Positions 1-23,789 are shown, counted from the stretch's first letter. The stretch: 30,515 bases of DNA from an uncultured bacterium (GCA_963977015.1 CAXBMO010000041.1:1-30515); one strand, 5' to 3'. The notes: generated by a model from the sequence alone, not told the origin. Translations and numbers: made by a program.

Positions 1-171
1 CTGAACACAAAGAGACCAAGCTTTTCGTGTCCACTTTTTCGGGGGAGTTCCATTCAAAAGGCGCAATTGGGTGATGGGCATATCGCCTTCAGGATCCCAG
101 CGGTTGTCCCCCCAGTCGACAGAGTCGGGAACCTCCCAACTTGTTCCGCATTGCCCACAGTGATCCGTCAT
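1..171 (-). CDS. Partial cassette-borne hypothetical protein (MTDHCGQCGTSW...; runs off the left edge)
   Basis: Manual translation: ATG at 171-169 with an open frame to position 1 and an N-terminal CxxC. Preceded by the core site GTTCGGC (187-181) and an A-rich leader like the other cassettes. Confidence 0.6.
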   Translation of the reverse strand, partial: MTDHCGQCGTSWEVPDSVDWGDNRWDPEGDMPITQLRLLNGTPPKKWTRKAWSLCVQ

Positions 172-187
172 CTTTTTTGAGCCGAAC

Positions 188-418
188 AGTATATTATTTC
201 ACTTGAAGGGCTGATATCCAAATCACGCAATTGGACCCTAACTTCTTAAGAAATGTTGATTGTTTGGTTCGAGTATTCATGATTATTCTAAATGAGTATG
301 AAAATTGTCGATTCACGGGCTACTGCCCTTGGCTGCCATATGGACTATCACTACCGGCTTGGCCGGTTTTTTGCAATGCGATTTTGCCCGAAAAGGATGG
401 GGTGATAGGGAATGTGGG
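188..418 (-). repeat. Conserved non-coding repeat 'B', copy 1 (attI-like cassette head)
   Basis: Aligns by eye with 1068-1257 and 14624-14851 (shared blocks GATATCCAA, ATTCATGAT, ATGGACTA). Abuts the GTT core of the downstream cassette. Confidence 0.85.
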
Positions 419-478
419 ACCCGGAAACTGGCGCGCGGGCGATTGAGTTCAGGGAGCGTTTCTACGGGTTAACGGGCG

Positions 479-608
479 CGCAAGGATCGCCCTTCTATTG
501 AAGCCGGCGAAGCCGGAACAATGTACTAATTCAAGATTACGAAGAAAATCACTGGTAAGTGTACCAAACAGCAAAAAAACTATCGACAGACCACCTCAGA
601 TGTTCGAT
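479..608. repeat. Conserved non-coding repeat 'A', copy 1 (cassette tail)
   Basis: Aligns with 13426-13554. 35 bp are identical (577-611 = 13523-13557), and the blocks CGCAAGGATCGCCCTTCT and GAAGCCGGCG are shared. Confidence 0.9.
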
Positions 609-649
609 TATGCCCGTTTTGGCTTACCGCGTTGAATTCAGGGCGACCT

Positions 650-1054
650 TCAGAGCCGAATGACAGAATCCTCTTTGAGTTTGTTGAGAATTTCGGGCGC
701 TTGTGAAATATCGTCGTGAAATACAAGACCAGAAAATGTGCCGGTCACTTTGGCGTAGCGCTTTTCCAAGGCTTCACCGTTACGAGCAAAAATCGGACCT
801 GTTGTGTCAGCAAGCGCCTCTTCAATCAGCGCAATTGCCTCGCCATCCGTTAGGTCTTCCCAATCTTCAAGGGCGGGCATCGCGAGTTCTGCGGCAAAAT
901 CGTCCAAGGAAGTGGACCGCCAATAGTTTTCTATTTCATATTCTGTGACCGAGTGCCCTGCAATCGCTTCTATTTCATTCGCAACAGTAGTGAAGTTGAT
1001 CTCCTTCTCTTCATACCTTCGTATCAACTCGACGATCTTTGCTTTCGCTACCAT
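650..1054 (-). CDS. Cassette-borne hypothetical protein, possibly a bacteriocin/colicin-E-type immunity protein
   Basis: 134-aa acidic helical ORF whose C-terminus (SGLVFH...PEIL...IRL) resembles nuclease-colicin immunity proteins. Bounded by GTTATGCC (1067-1060) and the complementary GGCATAA (614-608). Confidence 0.7.
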   Translation of the reverse strand: MVAKAKIVELIRRYEEKEINFTTVANEIEAIAGHSVTEYEIENYWRSTSLDDFAAELAMPALEDWEDLTDGEAIALIEEALADTTGPIFARNGEALEKRYAKVTGTFSGLVFHDDISQAPEILNKLKEDSVIRL

Positions 1055-1067
1055 CTCTTGGCATAAC

Positions 1068-1257
1068 AGTATGTTATTCCACTTGAAAGACTGATATCCA
1101 ATTCATGAAATTGGACCCAACTTCTTAAGGGATGTTGATCGTTTGATTTCGGAATTCATGATTTTTCTGGAGGAGTGTGAAAATTGTCCAGTATCGAGCT
1201 GCCGCCAAGGGATTGCAGATGGACTAGCAATACGGGGTTTCGTCGTTTTCTTCAAGG
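1068..1257 (-). repeat. Repeat 'B', copy 2
   Basis: High similarity to 188-376 (AACAGTATxTTATTxCACTTGAA..CTGATATCCAA..AATTGGACCC..AACTTCTTAAG..ATGTTGAT). Confidence 0.85.
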
Positions 1258-1396
1258 AAGTTCCGACGAGGTGGGGAGTTTACTTGGAGGGGAGACTGCT
1301 GGGTGGTGACTCTTCTGATTTCGGACCCTAACAACATCGTGTCGGAAGCCACTGGGCGCTTCGTGGGAGCCCCGTCAAATCATCGCAGTTGAGGCG

Positions 1397-2506
1397 TCAG
1401 GATGGTGTGGCGGTGGCGTCTGGCTTGAACCAATTGCGGGTGCGTTGACAGGTGCGGACGAGGAAGAGCATGAGGGGCACCTCGATGAGGACGCCGACGA
1501 CGGTGGCGAGGGCCGCCCCGGACGAGAGGCCGAAGAGCATGACGGCGGTGGCGATGGCGACTTCGAAGTTGTTCGACGCGCCGATCATGGCGGCGGGGGC
1601 GGCGTCTTCGTAGCGGAATTTCAAAAGCTTCGCCGCGAGGTAGGTGAGGCCGAAGATCAGGAGCGTTTGAAGCGCGAGCGGGATGGCGATCCAGAGAATA
1701 GTGAGCGGGTTGGCCAGGATGGTATCGCCTTTGAAACTGAAGAGCAGAACCAGGGTCACAAGCAGGGCGCCGATCGAGACCGGGGTGAGGTAGCGGAGAA
1801 ATTTGTCCGCGAACCACTCGGGCCCCTTCGCGTTCATGATCCACTTGCGGGAGAAGTAACCGGCCACGAGCGGCAGGGCGACGTAGATGCCAACGGAGAG
1901 GAGGAGCGCCTCCCACGGAACCGGCATTTGGTTGACCCCGAGCAGCCATCCGCCGAGGACGCCGTAGAGTACGAGCATGGTGAGGGAGTTGATCGCGACC
2001 ATGACGAGGGTGAGCCCCTGGTTGCCGCGGGCGAGGTAGCCCCACACCAGCACCATGGCGGTGCACGGGGCGATGCCGAGCAGGATGGCGCCGGAGATGT
2101 AGGACCGATAGAGTTCGACCTCGGTGCCGTCCTTGACCATCTCGGTGCCGGGAAGGAGATCCTTGAAAAAGACGCCAAGAAAGAGCGTCGCGATGGCGAG
2201 CATGGTGAACGGTTTGATGGCCCAGTTCACGAAGAGAGTCAGAAATACGGGGCGCGGGCTTCGGCTGGCCTGGACGACCTCGCCAAAGTCGATTTTGACC
2301 ATGATGGGATACATCATGAAGAAGAGGCAGATGGCGATGGGGATGGAGACAACCGGGGCGTCGTTCACGTAGATCGCCATGCCGTCGAGGGTTTCGGCAA
2401 GGCCCGGGGCGAGTTTGCCGAGGGCGATGCCGACGACGATGCAGGACGTCACCCAAAGGGAGAGGTGACGCTCAAAGAAGCTCATGGAAGATTTGTCGAG
2501 ACTCAT
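1397..2506 (-). CDS. acr3: Acr3-family arsenite efflux transporter
   Basis: Motifs [48 protein letters not shown] and VVGVLIEVP; multiple TM helices. Confidence 0.95.
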
Positions 2507-2611
2507 GGGAAATGGGGATGTGTCAGTTTGGTGGCGCGGTGATGCCGTGGACGACGTTTCGAAGGCGTGGTGGGCGCGGGCTAGACAGGGGAGGTGTGTG
2601 GCTTTGTTGAC

Positions 2612-2944
2612 TCAATCGTCCGCGGCTTCGTGAAAGTCATTGAGGCAGCAGAAAAGGTTCAGCAGGCAGGGCTTGCGAAGCGAGTAGAAGATCTGGGTGC
2701 CGCGACGTTCCTGCTTCAGAATGCCGACATTTCGCAAGACGGTGAGATGAGTCGAGACCGTGGACATGTCGAGATCGAGCAATGCGGTTAGGTCGGCGAC
2801 ACAGCGTTCGCCCTCGGCAACGGCGTTGATGATGACGAGCCGGTTGGGATTGCTGAGCGCCTTGAAAACGGCCGCAGCTTTCTCGAAGTCCTGGGCATCA
2901 AGATTGGAGGCACCGGCAGGCGAGGCGTCGCAGGATTCGGGCAT
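2612..2944 (-). CDS. arsR: ArsR/SmtB-family repressor
   Basis: FKALSNPNRL...ERCVADL...STVSTHL...RGTQIFYSL winged-helix pattern, directly upstream of acr3. Confidence 0.92.
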   Translation of the reverse strand: MPESCDASPAGASNLDAQDFEKAAAVFKALSNPNRLVIINAVAEGERCVADLTALLDLDMSTVSTHLTVLRNVGILKQERRGTQIFYSLRKPCLLNLFCCLNDFHEAADD

Positions 2945-2951
2945 ACATTGA

Positions 2952-2973
2952 TATTTGGCAAAGTATCCAAATA
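2952..2973. promoter_or_regulatory. Putative ArsR operator
   Basis: Inverted repeat TATTTGG-N8-CCAAATA immediately upstream of the arsR ATG. Confidence 0.6.
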
Positions 2974-3032
2974 ATGCAAGTGCGAAGGTCCGGAAACTGC
3001 GTTGCTACGGAACCTCGGGACCCGTGCTGCCC

Positions 3033-4478
3033 TCAGAATCCAAGCCACTTCTTGATCCGCTCCCAAAGAGGGGTGGTGTTGACGATCTTGTGCTGCTGTT
3101 GGTCAACCTTGACGCGCCCCATCCCGACGCCCGCGACGTAGTAGTCCAGCAGTTCTGCGATGGTTGCGTCTTCAAAGACTTCGGGATCGCCGGTGCCGGA
3201 GGAGTAGCTGGTCCAGCCGGAAAGGTTGGCGGTGAGGTCGGTTGATTTGCGGATGAGTTCCAGAAGCTGGTAGTTCGGTTCCGCTTCGAGGTAGGGGATG
3301 CGAAGGTCGAAGAGGTTGTCCACGGGAGCACCGTTGTTCGGCCCGCCGGGAAGCGGCGGCAGGTGAAAGAGGATCCTCCCGCGATTGGGGAGAAAGAGGA
3401 ATTCGATCTCCTCGTTCGGGAGCGGATTTCGCGACGTCCAGTAGGCGAATCCCTGGTAGGCATGGACGAAGGGGCTCGAGCCGTCGGGCAAGCGAACTTG
3501 AAGTTGGGTGCCGAATTCCTTGGGCGCATAGTTGAGCAAGCCGAGGTGGCCTTCGGACTCCGGGTCTCTCCGCGTCAAGGTTTGCGTCACGGAGTCATTG
3601 TCGCCGCTTCTGCTGGACTGGGACCACTTGCCGGTGTGGAGTTCGTGCAATCGGATTTCGGCCTGACTGAACGACGCCGTTGCGCCGGGTTCCAGCTTCA
3701 GCATCCGGCGTTCGGCCGGGCCATAGGCAAAGTCGATCGCGAGAACGAAAGGGGGATTGTGCCAGGCTTCAAACCGGGTCGACATCTGGGAGAGCTTGGC
3801 GTGGTGATAACTCGAACCGCTGGAAAGCGAGGTCTGGTTTTCCGCGTTGAGGATGCGAAAGCCCATCCAGCGAAAGGCGTCATCGTTGGAGGTCTCCACC
3901 AGGAACATGACTTCGGGCCAGTGCGTGCGAGAGCTGAGGTAGAAGCTGGGCGTTCCGTAGGATTTTTGGTCATCCCAATTTTCCACCGGATCATGGGTGT
4001 GGGGATCAATGAACTTGGCTGGGAAACGCTTGTCGTCTCCGGTAAGGGATTCCTTGTCGGGCCAGAAGACGGACAGGGCCTTCAGGCGAATTGTCAAATC
4101 CGGGCCAAAACTGCCTTCTTTGCCGAGCCCTGCGTCAATGACCCGGATGTGAGGGACCGCGCCGCCAGTCGCGTTTTGGATTTGGGATTCGATGCGAATC
4201 TCGGTTTCGGTGAGCGAAGACGTTGAGGTGCCGAACCGATAGGGTTTGGCCGGAATCGAACCCGAGGGTGGAGCAAAGGTGGGATCCCAGTTGCGGCGAG
4301 ACTCCGTCAGGCGGATTTCGTGGGGCGAGCTGAAGTGACGGGTGCTGGGGCGCTGCGAGACACCGAAAATGGCGGAGCCCAAAAACAGCAGGAGGATGCC
4401 CAGCGTAATCCAGGCTTTGGGGGTGAGGCGCTTCACAAAATGTGCTCCCACTCTGGCTGGAGTGGGTTGGGAATCCAA
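3033..4478 (-). CDS. Hypothetical membrane-anchored/exported protein
   Basis: 481-aa ORF with one N-terminal hydrophobic helix, 14 bp downstream of the PPC gene. The TTG start is uncertain. Confidence 0.7.
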   Translation of the reverse strand: MDSQPTPARVGAHFVKRLTPKAWITLGILLLFLGSAIFGVSQRPSTRHFSSPHEIRLTESRRNWDPTFAPPSGSIPAKPYRFGTSTSSLTETEIRIESQIQNATGGAVPHIRVIDAGLGKEGSFGPDLTIRLKALSVFWPDKESLTGDDKRFPAKFIDPHTHDPVENWDDQKSYGTPSFYLSSRTHWPEVMFLVETSNDDAFRWMGFRILNAENQTSLSSGSSYHHAKLSQMSTRFEAWHNPPFVLAIDFAYGPAERRMLKLEPGATASFSQAEIRLHELHTGKWSQSSRSGDNDSVTQTLTRRDPESEGHLGLLNYAPKEFGTQLQVRLPDGSSPFVHAYQGFAYWTSRNPLPNEEIEFLFLPNRGRILFHLPPLPGGPNNGAPVDNLFDLRIPYLEAEPNYQLLELIRKSTDLTANLSGWTSYSSGTGDPEVFEDATIAELLDYYVAGVGMGRVKVDQQQHKIVNTTPLWERIKKWLGF

Positions 4479-4492
4479 GCCAATTCTTGGCG

Positions 4493-6814
4493 CTACTTCT
4501 TCGGCGCTGGCGCGGTCACTTCCACGGTGATGGGGACCGAGTAGGTCGCGAATTGCTGGGTTTTCTCCTTGGCGGTATCGGCGCTCTGCTTGGCGGCTTT
4601 TTCGGCGGCAGTTTTGAGCGTGGCGACGGTCTTGGCCTTGGCTTCGTCGCCGGCGACGGTTTTGGCGAGATCCGTCAGGCGGGCGACTTCGGCTTCGGCG
4701 CGTTCGGCAGCTGCGGGATTGTGCCGGTAAAGCGCGTTGCCCACGCCCTGAAGCACGAATTGATACCTGCCGGGCTCGATTTTGAAGTTGCCGCTCGGCC
4801 GAAAGTTGATCGTTACCTTCCCCTCGGTCGCGCCCTCGGCAATGGAGGTTTTCGGCGGGCTTCTCAGCATTCCGGGAAACCCGAAGACTTCGACCTGGAG
4901 GCTGCCCTTGCGCGGACCGGCGTCGTGGACGGTGAAGGGGATGTCCAGCGTCTGGTTGAGTTCGGCGGTCCAGACCTTGTCTTCGGCGGGGGCGAGGATC
5001 GTGGGTTCGGCTTCCGTATCCATGACCGAAAGGACGATCTCCTCGTCGATCCGCGACCGCACCTGGCGCTGGTTTCCAAAGACGCGGATTCCCCAGATGA
5101 TGGAGCCGTTTCGTGCTTCCCGCGTCACGGCGTTCTCGTTGATGTCGGCGGTTCCCGTGATGCGAATGGGGCCGGTCCAGCGCGGTGCGTCGGCCCGGGC
5201 CTGGAGCATCAGGTAGCCTTCCGTCGTCTTGCCGCTCATCACCAACGGTGGCGCGATGACGCCTTCCGGCAGGTCGTGTGCCTCCACTGTGATGTCGCCT
5301 TCGAATCCGTCCTGGCGCAGGGCGAGGATCCGAAACACCATCGCTCCGCCGCGTCGCAACAGCGGTGCGGCCGGGTAGGCGTCGTTGTTGATCGTTTTGG
5401 TGCGTTCCGTTCCGGCGATGAGTTGAAAGTCCGGTTGGGGATCGCGGATCGCGAGCCGGTAGAGATGGGCGAGACTTCCGCCGCCGCTTTGGTTGAGCAG
5501 GGTGATGAGATAGTCGCCCGCTTCCGGGGCGGTGAATTGAAGGGCGGGATCGAGCGTGTTCGCGTTCAGGTCGTCGAGCGAGTCGGGGCCGTAGAAGCTG
5601 GCCGGGTCATCGGCTTCGGCCAACAGCTTACCATCATCGCCAACCTTGCGAACGGAGATGACCGGATCGCTGAGCACGCCGAGGCGGTCGGAATAGACCT
5701 CCAACGCATAGGTGCGATCCTTCTCCGCGGTGAACCGGAAGCTGTCGATGTCGCCGGGTTCGTCAAACCGGCCGGCGATCTCGCAGGGAACCGTCACCAA
5801 TTGATCGATCGCGTCCGCATCTTCCAGAACGACGGGCGCGGTTGCGAACCCGACCTTGGTCGATCCGGCGATGAATCCCGGGAACGCGGCGACGCGCGGC
5901 TTGGCGGTCTGGATTCCGGCAGGGGAGGCGACCTCCGCCGGGGCGCTGACTTTGATCGTTGCGGTTTCGATCGGCTTGCCATCGAGGAGATTCCCGGTGT
6001 CGATCTTTCCATCCGGCAAATGGCGTCCGAACTGGGTAAGCTTCGCCGTTTTCCCGGGTTCAACCGCAGGAGGGAAGGCGAAGTCGACCCTGGGCTGCCG
6101 GGAAATCTGGAGTCGGTAGAAATACTCGCTGTTGCCACGATACAAGGTCTCCGAAAGCGCCACAAAGTATTCGCCATCAGTCGGCGGCGTGAAGTCGACC
6201 AGAGGATCGGCCCCGATCGAACGGCGATTGCTGTCCAACTCGCGTCCCGCTTCATCAAAAACGGCCAACTGGCAGTCCGCCCGCGAATCGAGTCGCTCCG
6301 CCCAAGCCTGGATGATGAGTCGCTCGCCGCCCTTGCCCGTGAAGCGATACCAATCGATTTTGCGATTGTCAGTCGTTCCGAGCACGCCGGTCTCGAGTTC
6401 CAGCGGCATCGCTGTTTCCCGGGTCGAGTGATTGCCCTCCTCCCGAGTTTCCACCGCATTTTGGTCAACGACCATGAAGGGACGCGCCGTGGAAAGGCCA
6501 AAGTAACCGAGCGAGCGAACCTCGTAGAGCCCGGGCTCGGCATCGGCGGGAATCGTGATCTTGAACCGGTTCGCGACCGGGCGTGGCTCGGGATGAAACT
6601 CGTCGGCCGACTGGGTGATCGTCTCAACCTGAAAACGCGGATCGGCAAAGCGCAGCGTCGTCGCCTCGTCGAGGTTGGAGCCCTTGATGGTGACCTCAAC
6701 CGTGGCGCCCGCTTTCCCGACCGCCGGAGCGATCATCAACAGATCGGGGTTCGGCATGAAAGCGTGAGCCAGGGTGAGGCCCGCGAGATAGGAAAGGGTA
6801 AGGAAGAACCGCAT
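4493..6814 (-). CDS. Secreted PPC (pre-peptidase C-terminal) repeat protein, PVC type
   Basis: Signal peptide MRFFLTL...AHA, PAVGKAGATVEVTIKG, DWYRF and DIDSFRF repeats. Start placed at ATG 6814. Confidence 0.85.
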   Translation of the reverse strand: MRFFLTLSYLAGLTLAHAFMPNPDLLMIAPAVGKAGATVEVTIKGSNLDEATTLRFADPRFQVETITQSADEFHPEPRPVANRFKITIPADAEPGLYEVRSLGYFGLSTARPFMVVDQNAVETREEGNHSTRETAMPLELETGVLGTTDNRKIDWYRFTGKGGERLIIQAWAERLDSRADCQLAVFDEAGRELDSNRRSIGADPLVDFTPPTDGEYFVALSETLYRGNSEYFYRLQISRQPRVDFAFPPAVEPGKTAKLTQFGRHLPDGKIDTGNLLDGKPIETATIKVSAPAEVASPAGIQTAKPRVAAFPGFIAGSTKVGFATAPVVLEDADAIDQLVTVPCEIAGRFDEPGDIDSFRFTAEKDRTYALEVYSDRLGVLSDPVISVRKVGDDGKLLAEADDPASFYGPDSLDDLNANTLDPALQFTAPEAGDYLITLLNQSGGGSLAHLYRLAIRDPQPDFQLIAGTERTKTINNDAYPAAPLLRRGGAMVFRILALRQDGFEGDITVEAHDLPEGVIAPPLVMSGKTTEGYLMLQARADAPRWTGPIRITGTADINENAVTREARNGSIIWGIRVFGNQRQVRSRIDEEIVLSVMDTEAEPTILAPAEDKVWTAELNQTLDIPFTVHDAGPRKGSLQVEVFGFPGMLRSPPKTSIAEGATEGKVTINFRPSGNFKIEPGRYQFVLQGVGNALYRHNPAAAERAEAEVARLTDLAKTVAGDEAKAKTVATLKTAAEKAAKQSADTAKEKTQQFATYSVPITVEVTAPAPKK

Positions 6815-6916
6815 ATCCCCAATACACGGTGGAATTGGGGAGAGCCTTGCGGGCAAATCGCAGTGGAATCAGCGGTTTGGAGGGCTATTTCTACCACCCT
6901 TTGTAAACTTCCATGC

Positions 6917-7333
6917 CTATTCTTCCCACGGATTGATCAGGTCAACGCCGGTATCGGCAAAATCAACCAGGTTCCTCGTCACCAACGTGAGTTCATGAAC
7001 CAAGGCCGTTGCGGCGATGATGCAATCTGCCGTGTTTCGGGTTCGAATTGCCAAGATTTTCCCCGCCTGTTCCGCGATGGCCGAATTCACGGGGAGAATG
7101 CGATCGGCGAAGTTCGGGATTACCTGGTTTTGATACCATGTTTCCAAAATCGCAGCGAATTCGGCGTCCTTGCGTTTGGTGGCCTCGATCCCGTTGGTGA
7201 TCTCCATCTGAGTAATCACGCTGATAAAACAGGAGACAGGCTTGATACCGGATTGCCACGCCGCAACGTTGGCATTGCACCGTTTTTTCCTGCGCAACTC
7301 CGAGATCACATTGGTGTCGAGCAGGAATGCCAT
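6917..7333 (-). CDS. vapC: PIN-domain toxin (VapC family)
   Basis: FLLDTNVISE, SVITQMEI, DCIIAATA and LVTRNLVDF motifs. Confidence 0.93.
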   Translation of the reverse strand: MAFLLDTNVISELRRKKRCNANVAAWQSGIKPVSCFISVITQMEITNGIEATKRKDAEFAAILETWYQNQVIPNFADRILPVNSAIAEQAGKILAIRTRNTADCIIAATALVHELTLVTRNLVDFADTGVDLINPWEE

Positions 7334-7341
7334 TGAGTGAG

Positions 7342-7575
7342 TTAGGATAGATCGATTTCCCGAGGTGAATCTGCGGCTCGTGCAAAATCCACGTTTCCCT
7401 CATCGTCGCTTCCCAACAATTCGAGAAGCGTTTCGCTCTTTGTTTGGGGACCGGGTTGGACCAACTCTCGCTTCAACAGATTCGTGATCCAAACTGACAA
7501 AGAAGTGCCCGCATCGTCCGCTCGATGCCGGGCGGCCTCACCCAGTTCTTCTTCCAGTTGCAGAGTGACGTTCAT
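7342..7575 (-). CDS. Putative antitoxin (VapB-like, ribbon-helix-helix)
   Basis: 77-aa ORF 8 bp upstream of vapC, with an RHH-like N-terminus (MNVTLQLEEEL...SLSVWI) and an acidic tail. Confidence 0.8.
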   Translation of the reverse strand: MNVTLQLEEELGEAARHRADDAGTSLSVWITNLLKRELVQPGPQTKSETLLELLGSDDEGNVDFARAADSPREIDLS

Positions 7576-7660
7576 GTCTGAGGAATCTTACCACTTGGCG
7601 GTTAAACATCAATCATGGCTTGCGGCTGCCTTTCCCGCGACCGGGCAAATCTCCGGGGAA

Positions 7661-9568
7661 TCACCGCATGGTCGGCTCGACCCGGAAGAGCTTGCTTCGG
7701 GCGCGGAAGGCGTGATCGAGCCTCATTCGTTTTACCTCGTGACCGAGGCCCCAGGTATCGGAGAAAATCACGTCGCCGGTCTCAAAGTTGTAGCCGATGA
7801 CGAGGCGCATGTGACCGCCGCCGGTTTGGGCGGTGAGGGGCGGGTTTTCCGGAAAGATGCCCACCTGGAGCGCCCAAAGCAGGGGGATTCCCTGGTCGAT
7901 GTTGGTTTTGATGACCTGTTGAAAGGCTCCGGGACTTTGCGTCTGCAAGGGGGTGAAGCGGATGTGGAACTTGTGGGAGATGCGCTCGAGTGAATCCTGC
8001 ATTTCATCGAGCCGCGTGCCGCGCTGGGCGGAGCTTTGGAAGAGCGGGGCGAGTTGGTGTTGGTCGATCGGAACGCGGTAGTACTCAAACAGGCGTTGGC
8101 AGGCCGCGACCACGCAGTAGCCCTTGGCGCCCTGGTCGACCATCGGGATTTCCGGGATCAGGACGTCGCCGGAAGGCTTTACGCGCTCGACGTTGGCGGG
8201 AAGCTGGATGAGCCGGACTCCCTGCCGCGCGATTTCCTTCGGGCTGAGGCGGAGCCGCAGATATTGAGGATCCGCGCCGCTTTCCGCCATCGCCTCGGGG
8301 TTGTATTCCAACACGGCGGTCCCGGTTTTGCCCTGCCAGCGATAGCCCTTGATGTCGATGCCCGTTTTGGTGTCGGGACGCCGTGGGGTTGCCCGAACCC
8401 CGAGCATTTCGCTGAGGGCGCGACCACATTTGACGAAGAGTTCCTTGAATTCGCCGGGATCGATTTTGCCGGAATCCCCGCGATTGTAGAGCGAGAACGT
8501 CATCTCTGAAATTCGCCCGTTTTTGAAGTCGATGATGGCTTCCTGCGCCTCAACGGCACCATTCCAGAGGCGAAGATCGACGTGTTGGTTCGAGAACGTC
8601 TTGCGGTAGAACAGGGCGCGGTTCTTGCTTTGGGTGAGCCACTTGAAGTAGGGATTTTCTCCGTCGGAAAGCTCGGCGAACGCGGGTGGCGGCGCGAACC
8701 GGGTGCTCATCTTCGCGGGGGTCATTTTCCAGACGGCGGGGAGGTTCAGCAGTGGGTCGAGCGGGCAGTTCAGGAGGCCCTGCCGGCTTTCGTGAACAAA
8801 TTCATCGAGGAGAAGGTTGCCCGCTTGGTCCGGTGGAACGAATCGCAGCCGGACGAGTGGCCGGTCCGGGAGCTCGCCTGGTGCGTCCGGATTCACGTTG
8901 TAATCCAGCAACGCGATGTAGTCCTTCGTCACCCACTTGTAGCCCTCGGCCTTGGTGACGACGGCGGGTTCCAAGGCCGTGCCGCGGGTGCGGCCAATGC
9001 CGGTGCTTAGCATTTCGGCCTGCGTCTTCCGGGGATCGTGCGCATAGTGATGCGGAGTGGGTTTGGTGCTGAAGAGGCCTTTGAGAGTTTCCGTGGCGGT
9101 CTCACGAAGCTTGGTGTAATCCGCGACGGAGAGAGGCGGGGCGTCTTCATCGTGAAACACGATCACGATTCGTTCCGCCTGGTCGCCGGCGAAATCCACC
9201 CTGGCTCGCTCGACCGGAAGGCGACCGCCGAAACTGGTCATGTTGCAGGTGACGTTGCCATAGAGCTTGCGCGCAAACATGGCCCGTTGATCGCTCGAAC
9301 CCTGCCGGGCGAGCAGTTGGAAGTAGGGATTCACGGAAAAATCTTCCGCATCGAACATGTTGCTCAGCTGGTCGGGCTTCACGCTCCAGAGTTCTCCCAA
9401 CTCAAGAAGCGGGTCGAGCTCGCAGCTGACCTCGAACTGGTTTTGATCCTGGGCCCGGGTTGAAGGAATCGCGAACCAGGCGAATCCGACAACGACAATC
9501 AGAAATGGATAATGATGCAACCTCACAACGTTGCCGAAGATGGCACCACGCCACGTCTCAAATGTCAA
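7661..9568 (-). CDS. Secreted protein with a C-terminal C39-like cysteine peptidase domain
   Basis: Signal-like N-terminus; QGAKGYCVVA (Q...C), GGHMRLVIGYN (H) and FSDTWG (D). Confidence 0.8.
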   Translation of the reverse strand: MTFETWRGAIFGNVVRLHHYPFLIVVVGFAWFAIPSTRAQDQNQFEVSCELDPLLELGELWSVKPDQLSNMFDAEDFSVNPYFQLLARQGSSDQRAMFARKLYGNVTCNMTSFGGRLPVERARVDFAGDQAERIVIVFHDEDAPPLSVADYTKLRETATETLKGLFSTKPTPHHYAHDPRKTQAEMLSTGIGRTRGTALEPAVVTKAEGYKWVTKDYIALLDYNVNPDAPGELPDRPLVRLRFVPPDQAGNLLLDEFVHESRQGLLNCPLDPLLNLPAVWKMTPAKMSTRFAPPPAFAELSDGENPYFKWLTQSKNRALFYRKTFSNQHVDLRLWNGAVEAQEAIIDFKNGRISEMTFSLYNRGDSGKIDPGEFKELFVKCGRALSEMLGVRATPRRPDTKTGIDIKGYRWQGKTGTAVLEYNPEAMAESGADPQYLRLRLSPKEIARQGVRLIQLPANVERVKPSGDVLIPEIPMVDQGAKGYCVVAACQRLFEYYRVPIDQHQLAPLFQSSAQRGTRLDEMQDSLERISHKFHIRFTPLQTQSPGAFQQVIKTNIDQGIPLLWALQVGIFPENPPLTAQTGGGHMRLVIGYNFETGDVIFSDTWGLGHEVKRMRLDHAFRARSKLFRVEPTMR

Positions 9569-9605
9569 TCCTTCGCGGAAAGGAAGTGCCTAATGACTCG
9601 CCAAT

Positions 9606-10244
9606 TCACGATTGGTAGTTGGACAGGTGTTTCTTCACCCGGAAGAAGGATTGCAGCGTGTTGATCGTCATCGTGATGGAAAAGACGATCATCAGCCATT
9701 TGAAAAGGTTGAGATCGAAGAACGCGTAGATGCCGACGGCCCCATAAAGCAGATATTTGCTTCGCAAAATGGTCTGCATCGGGATCTCGAGAAAATTCTG
9801 GAGGACCGACAGGGAAATCATCGTGACGTAGATCACGCAGTAGAAGCAGGCCAGCACGGGATCGACCAAGTGGTGGGCAATCACGAGCAGGCAGGTCACG
9901 ACCATGCCCATTTGATCCGCGAACACATCGGCGAGCGCGCCACCGCCGTTGGCGGTTTTGGAGACGCGGGCCACGATCCCGTCCAGGCCGTCAAAGAGGA
10001 CGTAGATCCAGACCACAAGGGCCGCAGCCTTGAGGTGGTCGCCAAAAAGCAGTGCATAGGGAATGAGGGTCAGGATTCCGGCCAGGGTGAGGTGATCCGC
10101 CTTGAGCCCACGTTGAACCAGCGGACGAATCACCGGGCCAAAGGTGTCCGTTCTCCAACTCGAAAACTTTTCCTGACCGCCCCGTTCCTTGTCGCTGAAA
10201 TAGCCAACTTCGACAGTCTTTGAACTCTCCTCTTCGTTATCCAT
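9606..10244 (-). CDS. CDP-alcohol phosphatidyltransferase family protein
   Basis: Signature DGLDGIVAR...GGALADVFAD; multiple TM segments. Confidence 0.9.
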   Translation of the reverse strand: MDNEEESSKTVEVGYFSDKERGGQEKFSSWRTDTFGPVIRPLVQRGLKADHLTLAGILTLIPYALLFGDHLKAAALVVWIYVLFDGLDGIVARVSKTANGGGALADVFADQMGMVVTCLLVIAHHLVDPVLACFYCVIYVTMISLSVLQNFLEIPMQTILRSKYLLYGAVGIYAFFDLNLFKWLMIVFSITMTINTLQSFFRVKKHLSNYQS

Positions 10245-10305
10245 GTTGGGTCAGGGGATTCTGCCGCGACCTTCCCAACACTCAAGTCCTAATTCGTCGC
10301 GCGTT

Positions 10306-12804
10306 TCAGTGGTTGAACATGAACTCCTTGGTGTTGATGAGCACCCAGAGGAGATCTTCGAAGGCCTGTCGTTCAGCGGCTTCCGGGGTCAGCTTCCCTT
10401 CGCTTTCAGCAGCGAGTTGCCGTTTTTTGGCGAGGTGGGATTGGGCCATGGCGAGTTCCTCGGCATCCGGTTCGCGGGAAACGGCGCGAAGGTAGAGTTC
10501 GGTGAGCCGGTCGGCATCGGGGCGCTCGCCCGCTTTGGACAGTTCGGCGGCGAGACCGGAGTTGGCGTTGAGTTTGGTCTGGATCAGGTTGGAATTGATG
10601 AGATGGAGGCTCTGGCCAAGATTGGCTTCGTCGGTGCGCTCGCACTCACAGGCGGCATCCATCGCGGGGCGACCGAACACGGTGAGAAACTCGGATTCAT
10701 TGTTCGCCTTCTCGTTGGGCAGCGCGATGGCGCGGACGCCGACGGGTTGCTGGTTGAACGAGTTCTGCGAACCGGTCACGTCGTTGATGGAATCGAGCAG
10801 GACTTCGGCCGGGAGGCGGCGGGGATAAAAGCGGGCGTAGTTCTGTTCGTCGGCCCCATTGTTTTCCTGGGGCAGGGAGCTGAGCTGGTAGGTTTGGCTG
10901 TTGCAGAGCGTCCGGATCAGCACTTTGAGGTCAAAACCGGACCCGGCAAAATTCCGGGCCAGTTCTTCGAGCAACTCGGGGTGCGTTGCCGGGTTGGTCG
11001 GGCGGATGTCGTCTTCCGGCTCGACGAGGCCGCGGCTGAAAAAATGCTTCCAGTAGCGATTGACGAGAACGCGGGCAAAATACGGATTCTCCTTGGCGCG
11101 AACCCAGGTGGCGAGTTCAAACCTGGGATCCCGATCCGCCGGAATCTCCAGCGCATCTCCTTCACCCAGCAATCTGGGCTTGAGCTGCTGACCCGAGATC
11201 GGGTTCTGCATCTGGGCGACCGTCCGGCTGTGGTAGACGAGATCTTCGGCCGGCAGCTTGGGCGTTTTCTTCCGCTTCAGGGTCGAGAAAAACGCGGCGA
11301 ACGAAAAGTAGTCGTCCTGGCTCCAGCGCTCATAGGGGTGATGGTGGCACTGGGCGCACTGCATCCGAATCCCGAGAAAAACCTGGGCAATGTCCTGCAT
11401 TTGCTCCTTCTGATCCTTGACGACCCGATACCAGCTCACGGCCGGGTTTTCGCGGGCATTTCCGCTCGCGAGAATGAGTTCGCTGGCAAACTGGTCGAAG
11501 GGCTTGTTGGTGAGCAGACTGCTGCGAATCCAGGAATGAAAGGCGTAGGATTCCTGGGCAACCCATTCCTGGCCGCGACCGACCTGGTTGCGCAACAAAC
11601 CGGCCCATTTTCCCGCGAAATAGTCGGCGTAATCGGTGGATTCGAGCAGCGCGTCGATCTTGGCCGAACGTTTGTCGGGAGCTTCCGAAGCGAGAAAGGT
11701 CCGGGTTTCCTCAAGGGTGGGCAGGCGACCGGCGATGTCGAGCGTGACGCGGCGGAGAAAGGTTTGGTCGTCACAAATTTTGGATGCCGGGAGGCCGAGA
11801 ACGCGGAGCTTGGCGAAGATGTGCTCGTCGACGAAGTTCGCCGGTTTGGGTAGCTCGGCAATCGTCCCGCCAACCGGAATCGTCGCCATGAACACGGTGA
11901 TGTGCTCCTGAAAGCGAACCATGACCGAGGTGCTGCCGGATCGGTTGGCAAAGCTGACGAGCCCGTGTTCATCCGCTTCGCTCATTTCCGGTTGATTGCC
12001 CTCGTATTGCACCGCGCGGGTGATGTCACGCGTCGTTCCATCGCTGAAGAATGCGGTCACCGCGAGTTGTTGCCGGGAACCCGGTTGCGCGACGACGTTG
12101 CGGGGAAAAATCGCGATCCGCTCGACGGTCGCTTCCGATTCGGGGTGATAGGGGAGGCCGGATTCGATCCAACGCCGAATCGTGCGGTAATCCTCGGAGT
12201 CGCGTTCGAGACGGGCGCCGCCTTCGTGGGGAATCTCGCCACTGGCTTTCAGCAAAATCAGGCTGTGATCCGGTGCGGCCGGGTTGGCCCGGCGTCCGCG
12301 CGACTGCCGCGCGATCATCTCAAAGTCGGATCCCGGATCGAACCCGAGGAGCGAAAGCTGAAACCCGTTCTGGCCGGTCGACTTGGCGTGGCAGGCCCCG
12401 GCGTTGCAATGGCTGCGGGTGAAAACGGGCACGACGTCGTTGGCGAAGCTGACCGCCTGGGGTTGGTCAAATTGTTCGACGCGAACCTGGATCGAGGCGG
12501 AGGGATGCCCGTCTGAATCGGCCGTGATCGTGGCTTCTCCGTTCGCGGTGGCCTTGACGAACCCCGTCGCACTGATTTCGACAATGCCCGCTGGATGGGT
12601 GGAGTAGCGGACCGAACGCGTCGCATCGCGTCCTTCCTGCATCACGACCAGTTGCTGGCGGGCGTCGGGACCGATCAAAACGATGGAATCCGCTTCGGCG
12701 CGACCGTGAATCGTCGGATTCGGCGGGTTGGCGGCATCCAATCCACCCGCGAGGAAGAGGGAAAACACGAGCGAACGTCGGAAAATGGAAGTGGCAACAG
12801 GCAT
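10306..12804 (-). CDS. DUF1549/DUF1553 protein with Ig-like (Big_2) domains
   Basis: CNAGACH, FLRRVTLDIAGRLP, CAQCHHHPYERW, NRYWKHFFSRGL, ACECER and NTKEFMFNH motifs. Start placed at ATG 12804. Confidence 0.93.
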   Translation of the reverse strand: MPVATSIFRRSLVFSLFLAGGLDAANPPNPTIHGRAEADSIVLIGPDARQQLVVMQEGRDATRSVRYSTHPAGIVEISATGFVKATANGEATITADSDGHPSASIQVRVEQFDQPQAVSFANDVVPVFTRSHCNAGACHAKSTGQNGFQLSLLGFDPGSDFEMIARQSRGRRANPAAPDHSLILLKASGEIPHEGGARLERDSEDYRTIRRWIESGLPYHPESEATVERIAIFPRNVVAQPGSRQQLAVTAFFSDGTTRDITRAVQYEGNQPEMSEADEHGLVSFANRSGSTSVMVRFQEHITVFMATIPVGGTIAELPKPANFVDEHIFAKLRVLGLPASKICDDQTFLRRVTLDIAGRLPTLEETRTFLASEAPDKRSAKIDALLESTDYADYFAGKWAGLLRNQVGRGQEWVAQESYAFHSWIRSSLLTNKPFDQFASELILASGNARENPAVSWYRVVKDQKEQMQDIAQVFLGIRMQCAQCHHHPYERWSQDDYFSFAAFFSTLKRKKTPKLPAEDLVYHSRTVAQMQNPISGQQLKPRLLGEGDALEIPADRDPRFELATWVRAKENPYFARVLVNRYWKHFFSRGLVEPEDDIRPTNPATHPELLEELARNFAGSGFDLKVLIRTLCNSQTYQLSSLPQENNGADEQNYARFYPRRLPAEVLLDSINDVTGSQNSFNQQPVGVRAIALPNEKANNESEFLTVFGRPAMDAACECERTDEANLGQSLHLINSNLIQTKLNANSGLAAELSKAGERPDADRLTELYLRAVSREPDAEELAMAQSHLAKKRQLAAESEGKLTPEAAERQAFEDLLWVLINTKEFMFNH

Positions 12805-12819
12805 GCTGTTCCCTATCAC

Positions 12820-12866
12820 GCGGGTTCCAGGGCAGAAGTTTCACCGTCTGATTTCCGCAAAACGAC
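12820..12866 (+). repeat. 47-bp direct repeat, left copy
   Basis: 41/47 identical to 14899-14945, with a 20-bp exact core GAAGTTTCACCGTCTGATTT. Confidence 0.9.
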
Positions 12867-12886
12867 GACTCGGCCGCCATCACGCC

Positions 12887-13126
12887 CTGCATCGCAAGCT
12901 GAAGCTGATCGTCAACGAAGCTAGAAGCCGAGTGGTCCCGCTTCGTGAAGCCGCGTTTCTCGGTTTCAATATAATGCAACGCCGAGTGCGCTGGAGTGAG
13001 AAATCGAAGAAGCGCTTTAAGGGGAATGCCCGGTATATTATCAGGAGCACGCATGGCGTATCTCCCTCCAAGCAGATTGCCGAACTGCAGTCTTATGTTC
13101 ACGGAGCCATCAACCACTCGATGCCT
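12887..13126 (+). pseudogene. Fragment of a group II intron RT/maturase (RT C-terminus and start of the X domain)
   Basis: RKLKLIVNEARSRVV...FLGF...RVRWSEKSKKRFK...GVS...IAELQSYVHGAINH matches the class C intron-encoded-protein pattern. No YADD and no start. Confidence 0.85.
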
Positions 13127-13136
13127 GTCCTGAACT

Positions 13137-13270
13137 GGAGGGCGATGCTCCGTCATCGCCGATTCTTGGGAATGCCTGGCGGGGGCGGAGGTAGATGGGC
13201 GGACCGCGCGCCTGTCATGCGCCCATCCGCCAAAAGCGAAGTCACGGCGACGACGGAGCGATCGCCCTCC
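13137..13270. repeat. REP/REPIN-like long inverted repeat
   Basis: GGAGGGCGATGCTCCGTCATCGCCG (13137-13161) pairs with 13245-13270 (1 mismatch, 1 indel). There is also an inner hairpin GATGGGCG...CGCCCATC. Confidence 0.75.
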
Positions 13271-13425
13271 CAAAACAATGGCAACGATTCATGTTCGCGT
13301 GTTGGCAACGCGGGGAACCGAAGACGATCTCAAATACGAAGCAAGCTTATCAAGGCGAGGCAGTCAATTCGCAGTTTCGCCGGGCCAAGAGGAATCGAAA
13401 AAGCGCTTCACGAACGAAAAATATC

Positions 13426-13554
13426 CGCAAGGATCGCCCTTCTGTCGAAGCCGGCGTAGCCTGAATATGGTATTCGATCAAGGGTAAGAAGAATTCAATG
13501 GCAACCTGTACTACAAAGCAACAAACTATCGACAGACCACCTCAGATGTTCGAT
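13426..13554. repeat. Repeat 'A', copy 2
   Basis: Aligns with 479-608; fused to the R'' remnant GAGATAA of the CbrC cassette. Confidence 0.9.
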
Positions 13555-13561
13555 TATCTCC

Positions 13562-14086
13562 TTACGTGTAGTCGGCGTAGTATAGCACCTTGGAGCATTT
13601 CCGGCATTTCCACTTGTAGATCGCAGGGTTGCCCCCGGGAGAATAGTTCTGCTTGAATTCTGTGAAGAATTCCTCTGTGAGCCGACTATCATCAAACGTC
13701 GATCGAAAGACCTCAAGGGTCATGGCCGAAACATCAGCTTTGGAGGCATCACCATGAAACTCGCAAGCATCACTACAGCATGAGAGCCAGACCTCCTGCT
13801 GCCAACTGCTGAATCCAGGAGTCCGCTTAGTGACTTCATCGATGATTTCAGGATCCAAACCGGCATCCACCAACGGATAGTCGTCGGAAAACATGCCATC
13901 AAATTTCTCCGCTGCACTGCCATCGGCGATACACCACGGGCAAACAGATTCGACCTCATCCGCGCAATAGAGGCTTGCCGTGTAAATGAATCCTCGAGCC
14001 TTCGAACAGCATTCGCACTTCGCGTCGCTCGCCTTGATGGCGCCGGTCTCAATCGGCTGAGGATGGTAGGTGAACGCTGGGAGCAT
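13562..14086 (-). CDS. CbrC/UPF0167 family protein (gene cassette)
   Basis: FTYHPQP, CECC, CPWCIADGSAAEKF, RTPGFSSWQQE.WLSCC and CRKC motifs. Confidence 0.9.
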   Translation of the reverse strand: MLPAFTYHPQPIETGAIKASDAKCECCSKARGFIYTASLYCADEVESVCPWCIADGSAAEKFDGMFSDDYPLVDAGLDPEIIDEVTKRTPGFSSWQQEVWLSCCSDACEFHGDASKADVSAMTLEVFRSTFDDSRLTEEFFTEFKQNYSPGGNPAIYKWKCRKCSKVLYYADYT

Positions 14087-14093
14087 TTTCTTG

Positions 14094-14152
14094 AGATAAC
14101 GTCGGGCATGTGCCGCGCCGATTAGGCGTCGGACACAATGCCATTGTTCGTC
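14094..14152 (-). mobile_element. Integron attC site (59-bp element)
   Basis: On the minus strand: R'' GACGAAC, arm GGCATtGTGtCCGaCGCC pairing with GGCGCGGCACATGCC (3 extrahelical bases), then R' GTTATCT. R'' AGACGAAC is complementary to this cassette's start GTTCGTCT (14623-14616). Confidence 0.88.
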
Positions 14153-14607
14153 TTCGTTTCGTCTTTTGCCTCTGCGGTCCCCTTCGACGCCATTGCCAGA
14201 TTGTAAGCTTTCATCCAGTTTTTGTTGGCCTCATCAATAGTGTATTCAAGGTATTCAGCGATCTCGTCAAATCGCTTGAATTTTGCAAATCCGACTGGGG
14301 AATAGCCCATTCGATTTTCAACCTCTTCCAACGGATACATCGAAAATGGCGACCTCGTCGGAGTCTTGGTCAGGTGTGCTTCTTCAATGTCTCGAAGCGC
14401 TTCGTCAGGAGAAAATTGGATTCCTTCATATCCCATATACTGAACGAATTGGCGTAGCTTTCGGAGGTTTCCAGATCCGATTCTCCGAAAGATTTCTTTT
14501 TCCCAATACCCCGAGTCATTCACCTCAGGTAGAAACTTGAGAGACGGAAATCGAAATACGAGGTCCTTCCGTATCCTCGAGTAGTCGTATCGAATTCGAT
14601 CAATCAT
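14122..14607 (-). CDS. Hypothetical protein (gene cassette)
   Basis: 161-aa AT-richer ORF between the GTTCGTC core and the attC; its stop lies inside the attC loop. Confidence 0.7.
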   Translation of the reverse strand: MIDRIRYDYSRIRKDLVFRFPSLKFLPEVNDSGYWEKEIFRRIGSGNLRKLRQFVQYMGYEGIQFSPDEALRDIEEAHLTKTPTRSPFSMYPLEEVENRMGYSPVGFAKFKRFDEIAEYLEYTIDEANKNWMKAYNLAMASKGTAEAKDETKTNNGIVSDA

Positions 14608-14623
14608 CTTTCTTCAGACGAAC

Positions 14624-14851
14624 AGATATTGTTCCGCTTCACGGGCGATATCCAATTCCCAAAAGTGAACCTGTTGAGGATCTTCCGTGGGGGCGAATGG
14701 GTTTGAGATTCATGATCCCTGCTTGCGTTTGTGGTATTGATTGAAATGGAGACTGCCTCCGTTGACTGCCACATGGACTATCACTACCAGTTTGCCCAAC
14801 TTGCTGCAATGGCATTTTACCCGAAAATGGAGGGGTGATGGGGAATGTGGG
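14624..14851 (-). repeat. Repeat 'B', copy 3
   Basis: Shares GATATCCAATTC, ATTCATGAT, CTGCCAxATGGACTATCACTACC, TGCAATG..ATTTT.CCCGAAAA and GGGGTGATxGGGAATGTGGG with the other copies. Confidence 0.8.
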
Positions 14852-14898
14852 CTGTCCCCACTACAAGGATCAGAATCTGTCCACGATCTCCAGAATTT

Positions 14899-14945
14899 GC
14901 GGGTTTTGGGGCGGAAGTTTCACCGTCTGATTTGCGCAAAAAGAC
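14899..14945 (+). repeat. 47-bp direct repeat, right copy
   Basis: 41/47 identical to 12820-12866. Confidence 0.9.
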
Positions 14946-19249: not shown

Positions 19250-19387
19250 GGTTCTTTGATGGTAGAAACGCTAACATGTGTCCCAATTTGATCTACTGAA
19301 ATTTGGGAAAATGGAAAGTATAAAATGGGTCTCTCAATTTGAAGGTTTTCTCGGATTTGGAGTGGTTTCAATTCAGCTTCAAAAATG

Positions 19388-19478
19388 AGCCGGAGGCTCA
19401 ATCCGAACCTAGCCGGTGGTGGAGCGCAGCGAAACCACCGGATCGCAATCAAAGGTATGCTGCGCTCCGAAGGTGCGC
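19388..19478. repeat. Left composite REP-like palindrome flanking the Y1 transposase pseudogene
   Basis: AGCCGGAGGCTC...CCTAGCCGGTGGTGGAGC...AACCACCGG...TGCGCTCCGAAGGTGCGC; inverted relative to 19873-19963. Confidence 0.85.
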
Positions 19479-19872: not shown

Positions 19873-19963
19873 GCGCCGCCTTCGGGGCGCACTCAATTTC
19901 GAATTGAAACCGGTGGTTCCGCTATGCTCCACCACCGGCTAGGCTCTTTGGGAGCCTCCGGCT
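19873..19963. repeat. Right composite REP-like palindrome
   Basis: Reverse-complement counterpart of 19388-19478. Confidence 0.85.
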
Positions 19964-20227
19964 CGAACTGAAAACCACCACAAATCCGATTAAACCAGTT
20001 TGAATAGGCGATGTTCAACATCGGCGAAGTCGCCAAACCTTCGATCGCGTTAAGTTCTCAGTTCGTTGAAAACATGGCTGTGGGCCAAAGCGGTCATCCC
20101 AACCTCAGGTTCCAATCCGTCGATCAACAAGGATAGCAATAATTTCTGGAAATCCAGAAGCGCAGTCTCCCTGTCCCAAATTTTTCTGTCCACTTGAACC
20201 TTGATGTTGCACTGCTAGGGTCGTCGG

Positions 20228-22846: not shown

Positions 22847-22881
22847 GAGATTTTCACCTCTTGTAGGATAAGGCAGGCGGC

Positions 22882-22970
22882 GTAAAACGGGACACCGGCC
22901 CGTTCCCGCGGACGACGCGCCCGATCGACCGGCGGGAGTCTCCGGGGAACGGGCCGGTGTCCCGTTTTAC
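22882..22970. repeat. REPIN (inverted REP doublet), copy 1
   Basis: 26-bp perfect inverted repeat GTAAAACGGGACACCGGCCCGTTCCC around a 37-bp spacer. Confidence 0.9.
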
Positions 22971-22972
22971 GG

Positions 22973-23062
22973 GAACGGACAACGCCGAAGGGCAGAACAC
23001 AGCGAAAACCTGGGCTACACGATGATCCCCGGCGCCATCCACCAGAAGCTGCCCTGCCGTAG
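22973..23062 (-). pseudogene. Duplicated 3' tail and downstream flank of the RAYT gene
   Basis: Near-identical to 24226-24315; includes the last ~15 codons of the RAYT and its stop. Confidence 0.85.
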
Positions 23063-23204
23063 GTCGAGATGAACGAAACCGCGTTCATCGCCAACAACGC
23101 CACCGAGAACAGCGAAACGCGCCAAGCGCAAACGCGAGGCTTCGCCGAAGGTCCGCGAGGGAGAAGAAGAGGAGGAATCGCCGCAGTTGAGTTTGTTCGG
23201 GTGA
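23062..23204 (+). pseudogene. Degenerate mutS 3' fragment, copy 2
   Basis: VEMNETAFIANNATENS matches mutS ~22306-22357 and is fused to a copy of the mutS terminal codons (...CAGTTGAGTTTGTTCGGGTGA). Confidence 0.85.
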
Positions 23205-23246
23205 ATCGCATTTGCTCGAATTGCGCCACGGTGTTAGTTTTGCCGT

Positions 23247-23761: not shown

Positions 23762-23789
23762 GATTTTCCGGCCCATCAGGAAGCCAATG

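Follow-up and report, generated by a model that had tools for sequence, protein, structure and literature searches.

Multi-copy attI-like heads, detached from the integron integrase and followed by gene cassettes, in the genome of an uncultured bacterium

The stretch of DNA analysed here (the window) is the whole of contig C41 (30,515 nucleotides (nt), or 30.5 kb; CAXBMO010000041.1) of an uncultured bacterium (GCA_963977015.1, hereafter G000), whose 6.9-Mb assembly in 51 contigs has a GC content of about 60% and is 95% complete and fragmented. We compared it with three congeners, G001, G002 and G003. The window contains two low-GC islands (41-53% GC versus 57-66% around), at 1-1350 and 13350-14900, which hold two units made up of gene cassettes of the integron type, of a repeat, head B, that precedes the first cassette, and of a second repeat, A, that follows the last one. 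What is said below about activity, transcription and translation of this system is inferred from sequence.

On the minus strand of the window, GTT cores have their G at 187, 1067, 14100 and 14623, and a small open reading frame (ORF) starts downstream of each, at 171, 1054, 14086 and 14607, that is 16, 13, 14 and 16 nt from the core G. At the end of all three complete cassettes, the complement of the cassette's own core recurs, as GGCATAA (608-614), GAGATAA (13554-13560) and AGACGAAC (14147-14154). A sequence-only reading of the window had already reported four small minus-strand ORFs lying 13-16 nt past GTT cores, which direct reading confirmed, and a core complement at the end of three complete cassettes, which turned out to exceed chance genome-wide as well. 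Heads and cassettes lie as follows (a slash in a motif marks the crossover point):

1-186, minus strand: first cassette of the leftmost unit, cut by the contig end, beginning with TT at 186-185
from 171 to beyond the window, minus strand: ORF of this leftmost cassette, 57 amino acids (aa) visible, 187 nt present
187-445, minus strand: head B copy 1 (nhmmer 229.7 bits), ending at the G of CTG/TT (187), promoter-like site from 311 to 282
608-1066, minus strand: 134-aa cassette, ORF 650-1054, core GTTATGCC, inverse core GGCATAA at 608-614, A in place of the attC hairpin
1067-1334, minus strand: head B copy 2 (nhmmer 257.6 bits), crossover G at 1067, promoter-like site from 1190 to 1161, 18-codon leader ORF at 1159-1103
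13554-14099, minus strand: UPF0167/CbrC cassette, 174-aa ORF 13562-14086, core GTTATCTC, inverse core GAGATAA at 13554-13560
14094-14154, minus strand: canonical attC of the 161-aa cassette, R'' AGACGAAC at 14147-14154, R' GTTATCT at 14094-14100, three extrahelical bases in the stem
14101-14622, minus strand: 161-aa cassette, ORF 14122-14607
14623-14879, minus strand: head B copy 3, the most diverged (nhmmer 167.3 bits), crossover G at 14623, 24-codon leader ORF at 14713-14639

Only the junction at 14094-14154 folds as an attC, in agreement with the single normal attC junction that had been counted before: it forms a hairpin of 61 nt in which three bases bulge out (z -2.9 on one strand and -3.06 on the other), and relatives of this attC are present on contigs C6 and C35. 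Such a hairpin is absent from the 134-aa and UPF0167 cassettes, which continue from the inverse core into A (z -0.96 and +0.53). Concerning the cargo, the 174-aa ORF belongs to the UPF0167/CbrC family (PF03691, 203 bits), and the 134-aa ORF, which has no Pfam or NCBIfam match, gave an Atlas lead to clusters with a colicin/pyocin immunity domain in 13-69% of their members. Profile searches gave no family assignment for the 161-aa ORF and the partial 57-aa ORF, and an Atlas look-up of the 161-aa protein, with its low recognition and scattered ankyrin and DUF leads, was not used. Rfam returned nothing in the window at gathering score, and nothing in 1-1400 at E <= 1.

Head B is a discrete unit of about 240 nt that occurs in exactly seven copies in G000 (nhmmer E <= 1e-48, the next match having E 0.67), three of which lie in the window at its two loci. 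Identity to copy 1 is 76% for copy 2 and 68% for copy 3; in all pairings the homology begins 230-255 nt before the crossover and stops exactly at GTT, with unrelated sequences on the flanks. All seven copies end in CTG/TT, divergent cassette sequence follows at once, and an ORF starts 13-16 nt further on. A single GGATATC box is found about 40 nt before the crossover, and sigma-70-like hexamers occupy homologous positions in two of the three window copies (311 to 282 and 1190 to 1161). A short leader ORF extends from 91-92 nt to 34-35 nt before the crossover; it has 18 codons in seven of nine copies from two species, with very different codons and a conserved C-terminus (...PIS or ...PLW), and it has 28 codons in copy 1, where it runs from 280, owing to one extra base. 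The crossover-proximal (3') 115 nt of B, like A, fold no better than shuffled sequences (z -1.28 to +1.24). We also considered B as an ORF-less cassette with an attC of its own, a candidate that was rejected on the lack of a fold and of a consistent G/TT at the 5' ends. The sequence-only reading had described B as a repeat of about 230 bp, in three copies, that the first cassettes follow, and had taken it for a repeated and self-contained head: the description stands at a slightly greater length, and the promoter-like and leader-ORF features, together with an end exactly at the crossover, bear out the interpretation.

A DNA search of 61 genomes detected B only in G000 and in its congener G002, and a metagenome scan with a 20-nt B motif gave eight loci, three of which are G000's own (identical scores) and five of which are motif-only chance matches. 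In G002 (contig C302), B lies divergent from an intI gene (TIGR02249, 286 bits for a cut-off of 265), about 370 nt from its start, and is thus in the classical attI position; the cassette that follows is the 142-aa cassette found after B on contig C19 of G000 (86% identical nt). This is the only intI adjacency among the nine B copies examined in the two genomes, and that intI is broken. Looking for B in the genome and its relatives, and for an intI divergent from one of its copies, had both been proposed as checks in the sequence-only reading; the first gave seven copies in G000, each with a cassette after it, as well as the copies in G002, and the second gave a positive answer, but in the congener and with an intI interrupted by a repeat resembling a miniature inverted-repeat transposable element (MITE). 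In G003 (contig C159), the attI beside an intact IntI (390 bits) contains two GGATATC-containing direct repeats and has CTG/TT as crossover. The shared box is a lead to how an integrase might bind or recombine B and the second head family described below.

This second head family, B2, was found by tracing other attCs upstream. The sequence-only reading, which was right about the cassettes and B, had missed it together with many other cassette loci. B2 is about 300 nt long, ends in CCCAG/TT, and occurs in seven copies in G000, in at least five places in G001 and once in G002, which brings the heads of G000 to at least 14 (seven B and seven B2), at different chromosomal places and with one to several cassettes each. 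It carries a TTGACA-N17-TAGAAT site (read from the alignment), one or two GGATATC boxes, and a leader ORF of 22-24 codons with very diverged 5' codons and a C-terminus of the type ...SLQEC, the ending ...L(Q/H)(E/K)C being found in eight of nine copies. Considering both families, leader ORFs are open in 15 of 18 head copies, and some head copies are 89-94% identical to one another. Each of the seven B and seven B2 copies presents a double-stranded G/TT site directly preceding the first cassette, as an attI does. On contig C334 of G002, a B2 head is followed by the 161-aa cassette of the window (89% identical nt), with the same first bases and inverse core and with a different attC. Since the same cassette stands behind B here and behind B2 there, cassettes pass from one head family to the other, as would be predicted of docking sites.

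One B2 head of G001 (contig C5, ~1500-600, minus strand) has a gene for a tyrosine recombinase (N-terminal half of TIGR02249, 90 bits) about 120 nt past its crossover, in the place of a first cassette. This head, like the B2 head on contig C30 of G000, is found just downstream of a DUF1501-like gene.

Genome-wide, the complement of the 8-nt core was found at the end of the first ORF behind 11 of the 14 heads (nine exact and two at seven of eight bases), while the other three comprise one that is cut by a contig end and two that have no core complement. A stricter control was based on pairings, and it was positive for 10 of 13 own pairings and for 1 of 154 mismatched ones. By these sequence features, the cassettes behind the heads qualify as IntI-type integron gene cassettes. 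We traced attCs by a similarity search with eight known attCs, for which a finder based on a regular expression and folding was abandoned (341 matches, mostly spurious). Two sequence families of further attCs were found, on C36, C30, C18, C16, C6, C35 and other contigs. The C36 array has at least five cassettes and attCs, with each inverse core complementing the preceding core, and would qualify as an attC cluster without an integron integrase (CALIN: two or more attCs and no intI nearby). Arrays comprise 1-6 cassettes, lie far from intI and mostly terminate in ordinary attCs. No window locus has more than one canonical attC, so that these loci resemble single attC sites lacking an integron integrase (SALINs). 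A complete integron, in the sense of IntegronFinder, has intI within a few kb of at least one attC, and no integrase match was found at the window loci or at the other head loci.

Several attCs have uncommon ends or neighbours. Those at C5:241638-241757, C11:159558-159686, C28:81802-81921 and C31:28652-28768 end in GACG followed by AT or GA and not by TT; the C11 and C28 ends may join non-canonical genomic sites, and a second cassette seems to follow on C31, so that its attC end may be a one-base R' variant. An IS110-family insertion sequence (IS) element lies just after the inverse core (xxxxAACAAGA), at the same distance, in four attCs (C18 ~49130, C18 ~43635, C36 ~40448 and C19 ~70873), full-length on C18 and truncated at the other sites. 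The C18 array also contains a group II intron (Rfam RF02001 at 141 bits, RF01998 and RF00029) with a 472-aa reverse-transcriptase ORF, at 114-2988 (minus strand) of C18:44000-55999, directly after an attC-like hairpin and in cassette orientation. Both the IS110-family element and the intron are of the classical kinds of attC parasites, and as such they support the identity of the cassettes. Parasites of these kinds go by the names of IS1111-attC insertion sequences and group IIC-attC introns. A class of attC disruptions is also mentioned in PMC12901181.

The sole IntI locus of G000 above the cut-off is on another contig (C1:216131-217426, 431 aa, 290-291 bits for a TIGR02249 cut-off of 265), and the earlier statement that no integrase lies near the units therefore holds. 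Its product shows the IntI-specific WQWVFPS...RRHH stretch (the extra domain near patch III), by which it would be classed as an IntI, and has an N-terminal extension of about 130 aa. The gene is colinear with its flanking genes in G002 (C119) and G001 (C27), with 78-89% identity in translated matches, and the 20 kb read beside it contain no head, attC-like repeat or GGATATC box. Because of this synteny in three species and this absence of a head, attC or box, we regard it as a conserved stand-alone gene. It is 33-36% identical to the B-linked integrase of G002 and to the integrase of G003. The former is split by a MITE-like repeat of about 150 nt (G002:C302:1546-1700) and is hence a pseudogene, of which no ortholog was found in G000. 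The same MITE-like repeat is abundant in the genus, with more than 25 sites in G000 (for example C2:159424-159581).

Repeat A and the spacer beside it are arranged as follows in the window:

446-478, minus strand: unique spacer between A copy 1 and head B copy 1
479-607, minus strand: tail A copy 1, shortened form of about 130 nt, joined right after the AA of the inverse core
13278-13553, minus strand: tail A copy 2, long form of about 276 nt, 94% identical to the C6 copy

These two copies are 81% identical over 134 nt. Among 41 genomes searched, A was found in G000 only, in five copies: the long form on C41 (13278-13553) and C6, the form of about 130 nt at 479-607, one of about 60 nt on C30, and a partial copy on C16 that consists of a 3' piece. 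Four copies include the 5' end, which always lies directly after the AA of an inverse core, and the bases before it are the exact core complement in three of these four and match at five of seven positions in the fourth (C6). A showed no similarity to the heads or to intI flanks, and no Rfam match, intron domain or transposase was found in it. Two candidate identities were rejected: as an attC, A folds no better than shuffled sequences in either orientation, and as a coding sequence it offers a 69-aa ORF (13278-13487) that has no Pfam match and a frame that is interrupted on C6. Rather than a general part of the platforms, A is a distinct tail specific to G000. The sequence-only reading, in which the last cassette of both complete units ended in an A of about 130 bp, was thus right about the placement and wrong about the second copy, which measures about 276-280 nt; and neither its general layout of a B head, cassettes and an A tail nor A as a component of the platform held, given that A is found at only five array ends, in G000 alone, that it is not an attC, and that most arrays end in attCs.

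The A junction coincides with the position where cleavage of an attC folded from the top strand would fall. For attI-type cassettes, PMC12901181 quotes a proposal that the crossover takes place at R'', and by analogy a top-strand (R'') crossover is a lead to the origin of the junction. On C30, the unit (~5340) ends in a shortened A that is fused to internal sequence of an AcrB-like gene, of which G002 (C93 ~5900) has an intact copy; about 3.7 kb of the congener is replaced there by a unit of about 2 kb, and A is cut by the deletion into this gene.

The second window unit is bracketed by a direct repeat:

12820-12866, plus strand: 47-nt direct repeat, left copy, 87% identical to the right copy
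12867-13277, strand not assigned: segment X, 411 nt, inside the insertion, parts of which match multi-copy sequences in G001 and G002
14899-14945, plus strand: 47-nt direct repeat, right copy

The divergent genes that flank this unit are adjacent in G002 (C26), with about 520 nt between the matched ends versus 2554 nt here, and a sequence related to the 47-nt repeat is single-copy at this empty site. The block at 12867-14898 is, by this comparison, an insertion. Segment X had no Pfam match in the four frames tried and no other copy in G000. No flanking direct repeats were found at four other head loci, and the C28 and C31 loci offered no usable synteny for an empty-site comparison. Regarding how heads may spread, some arrays end in attC...GACG/AT, which fits the consensus G/WT of genomic sites (Loot et al., preprint 10.1101/2022.09.11.507474), and the left end of the window, where a head, an ORF, A and a head follow each other, has the attI-ORF-attI layout, for which Gonzales Machuca et al. 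2026 (PMC12901181) found very efficient recombination in class 1 integrons. Because of this shared layout, an integrase-driven movement of circles made of a head and a cassette is plausible.

Elsewhere in the window, genes on the minus strand, co-oriented with head B copy 2 and immediately upstream of it, encode an SBF/ACR3-type transporter (1397-2506) and an ArsR-family regulator (2612-2944). Duplicated segments spaced by about 1250 nt, with pieces 92-96% identical, are found at 22300-25100 and include two identical 90-nt stretches (22881-22971 and 24128-24217) with perfect 27-nt inverted repeats 37 nt apart. Inverted repeats of 55 nt (19387-19441 and 19910-19964, 84% complementary) enclose 468 nt and may be a small mobile element.

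We favour, with moderate confidence, the reading that the window holds two loci of a distributed, integrase-detached set of attI-like platforms for cassette capture and expression. B would serve, over about 240 nt, as an attI-type module for docking and expression, consisting, from 5' to 3' on the minus strand, of a sigma-70-like promoter, a short translated leader ORF, the GGATATC box and the CTG/TT recombination point. An integron integrase, which may, as the sequence-only reading had proposed, be a distant one acting in trans today, would insert circular cassettes at the G/TT of a head; because cassettes insert there, the captured gene comes to lie 13-16 nt downstream of the junction, where it would be transcribed from the head promoter and where ribosomes arriving from the leader ORF would probably help its translation. 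We put forward more tentatively, as a possibility that we would not yet call probable, that the whole forms a 'distributed integron', in which one conserved stand-alone integrase serves many scattered attI/promoter/leader platforms, so that each captured gene has a promoter of its own and does not queue in one array. Platforms would then multiply, two head families would share a cassette pool across the genus, and A would be the sign of a cassette that a top-strand (inverse-core) crossover had captured or sealed.

A number of observations weigh against this platform reading. None of the 14 heads of G000 is near an integrase match, although an attI is defined by its intI neighbourhood. There is no sign that the C1 integrase recognises B or B2, because the sole adjacency involves a broken enzyme to which it is 33% identical; since only 420 nt separate the C36 head from a contig end, and the left unit of C41 is cut, an unassembled intI is possible. 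Window copy 3 of B has no scored promoter site, and promoter scans gave four sites for 1.5 expected, a weak excess. The leader ORFs could be conserved as DNA-binding sequence and not because they are translated. In contigs from four DNA runs (one study, depth about 5), which cover the same arrangement, no cassette-skipping or excision joints were seen, the loose ends that they show corresponding to paralogous copies of A. No empty head was found, and integration at a head was thus not caught in the act. The 5' ends of the heads show no consistent G/TT or target duplication.

Some of these points would be expected if the heads were inert debris, either fossils of formerly complete integrons or a single integron scattered by IS elements or MITEs, with loss of the integrases and nothing left but ordinary CALINs and SALINs. 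Integrase loss and rearrangement are indeed named as origins of CALINs (Cury et al. 2016, PMC4889954), the B-linked integrase of G002 has been disrupted by a MITE and is a pseudogene, the arrays are strewn with IS elements, MITEs and an intron, a deletion into the AcrB-like gene terminates the C30 unit, and excision joints are missing from the four DNA runs. Yet fourteen heads with the same 5' and 3' limits and unrelated flanks are not what fourteen independent integrase deletions would leave, and the 89-94% identity between some heads points to recent spread. Since, moreover, one cassette is found behind different head families in two species, leader ORFs have stayed open in 15 of 18 copies, and a syntenic integrase with an open frame is retained in three species, we regard debris as unlikely. 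We judge it rather unlikely, though not as strongly, that B and B2 are themselves cargo, moving in attI-type cassettes (attI-ORF-attI, or circles with a head, a cassette and an attC) into attG sites, with dispersal as a by-product. The left end of the window, head-ORF-(A)-head, has this very architecture; such layouts, as well as cassettes in which up to 244 nt of attI stand in for the attC, recombine efficiently in integrons of classes 1 and 2 (PMC12901181); the array ends in attC...GACG/AT agree with G/WT (preprint 10.1101/2022.09.11.507474), and window unit 2 was inserted at an intergenic site that is empty in G002. But the 5' ends of heads do not fall on a consistent G/TT, unit 2 is bracketed by the 47-nt duplication and not by core sites, and cargo heads would account for dispersal while being compatible with heads that act as docking sites once placed.

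A small integrative element of a different recombinase, extending from B to A, with its attachment site between A and B (446-478) and incidental integron cores, appears very improbable to us. The two units in tandem (B, cassette, A, spacer, B) do resemble a tandem integration, a 47-nt direct repeat surrounds unit 2, and a tyrosine recombinase gene directly follows the B2 head in G001. Against such an element, A is found at five of many array ends and in no relative, its 3' limit varies (about 60, 130 and 280 nt), at least ten heads have no A, and flanking repeats are missing at the four other loci.

With respect to known systems, the heads are like the platform of a chromosomal integron (intI, attI and cassette promoter Pc) in that a G/TT crossover precedes the first cassette, a predicted promoter reads into the array, and the site is double-stranded without a hairpin; one B copy is divergent from intI in G002, and a related box is present in the attI of G003. 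They differ from it in being multi-copy (seven B and seven B2), detached from the integrase and set in unrelated contexts, the integrase itself being stand-alone and syntenic. By position and anatomy, B can thus be read as an attI with a Pc, and by adjacency to intI it is not an attI in G000. Small groups of 1-6 cassettes far from intI, a lone integrase in the genome and IS elements in or near the arrays recall CALINs and SALINs, and CALINs are described, in the passages of PMC4889954 that we draw on, as devoid of Pc and attI and of unknown expression; each array of G000, in contrast, is preceded by a conserved head in which promoter-like, leader-ORF and crossover features are present. The cassette at 479-1066, which ends in attI-like sequence instead of an attC and keeps only the inverse core, is similar to the unusual attI-type cassettes (attI-ORF-attI and attC-ORF-delta-attI; Partridge 2009, cited in PMC12901181), but the latter lie in class 1 and class 2 mobile integrons by intI, while those found here are chromosomal and dispersed, with an additional A before the next head. 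The leader ORFs resemble ORF-11, ORF-17 and ORF-18 of attI1, short ORFs in the attI region upstream of the first cassette start, which raise cassette translation by coupling in class 1 integrons (PMC8876359); the predicted head ORFs are unrelated in sequence, have conserved C-termini and end 34-40 nt before the crossover instead of spanning it. Compared with IS1111-attC elements and group IIC-attC introns, A shares their target region and has no transposase, intron domains or attC remainder after it. We found no description of multi-copy, integrase-detached attI-like heads in the integron literature searched, supplementary material not being covered.

In integron theory, one attI and one Pc lie beside intI, and distant cassette clusters are viewed as silent reservoirs of unknown expression. 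If our reading is true, capture and expression sites can uncouple from the integrase and multiply, and many cassettes would be first-position, expressed genes. The heads would also provide sequence-defined attI candidates for a little-studied lineage, make the expression and exchange of CALIN and SALIN cassettes directly testable, and bear on the proposed evolution of attI sites out of hot spots in the genome. Finally, the cargo of the window (a CbrC-family protein and a lead to a colicin/pyocin-immunity-like one) is in line with the view that cassettes store genes for defence or immunity.

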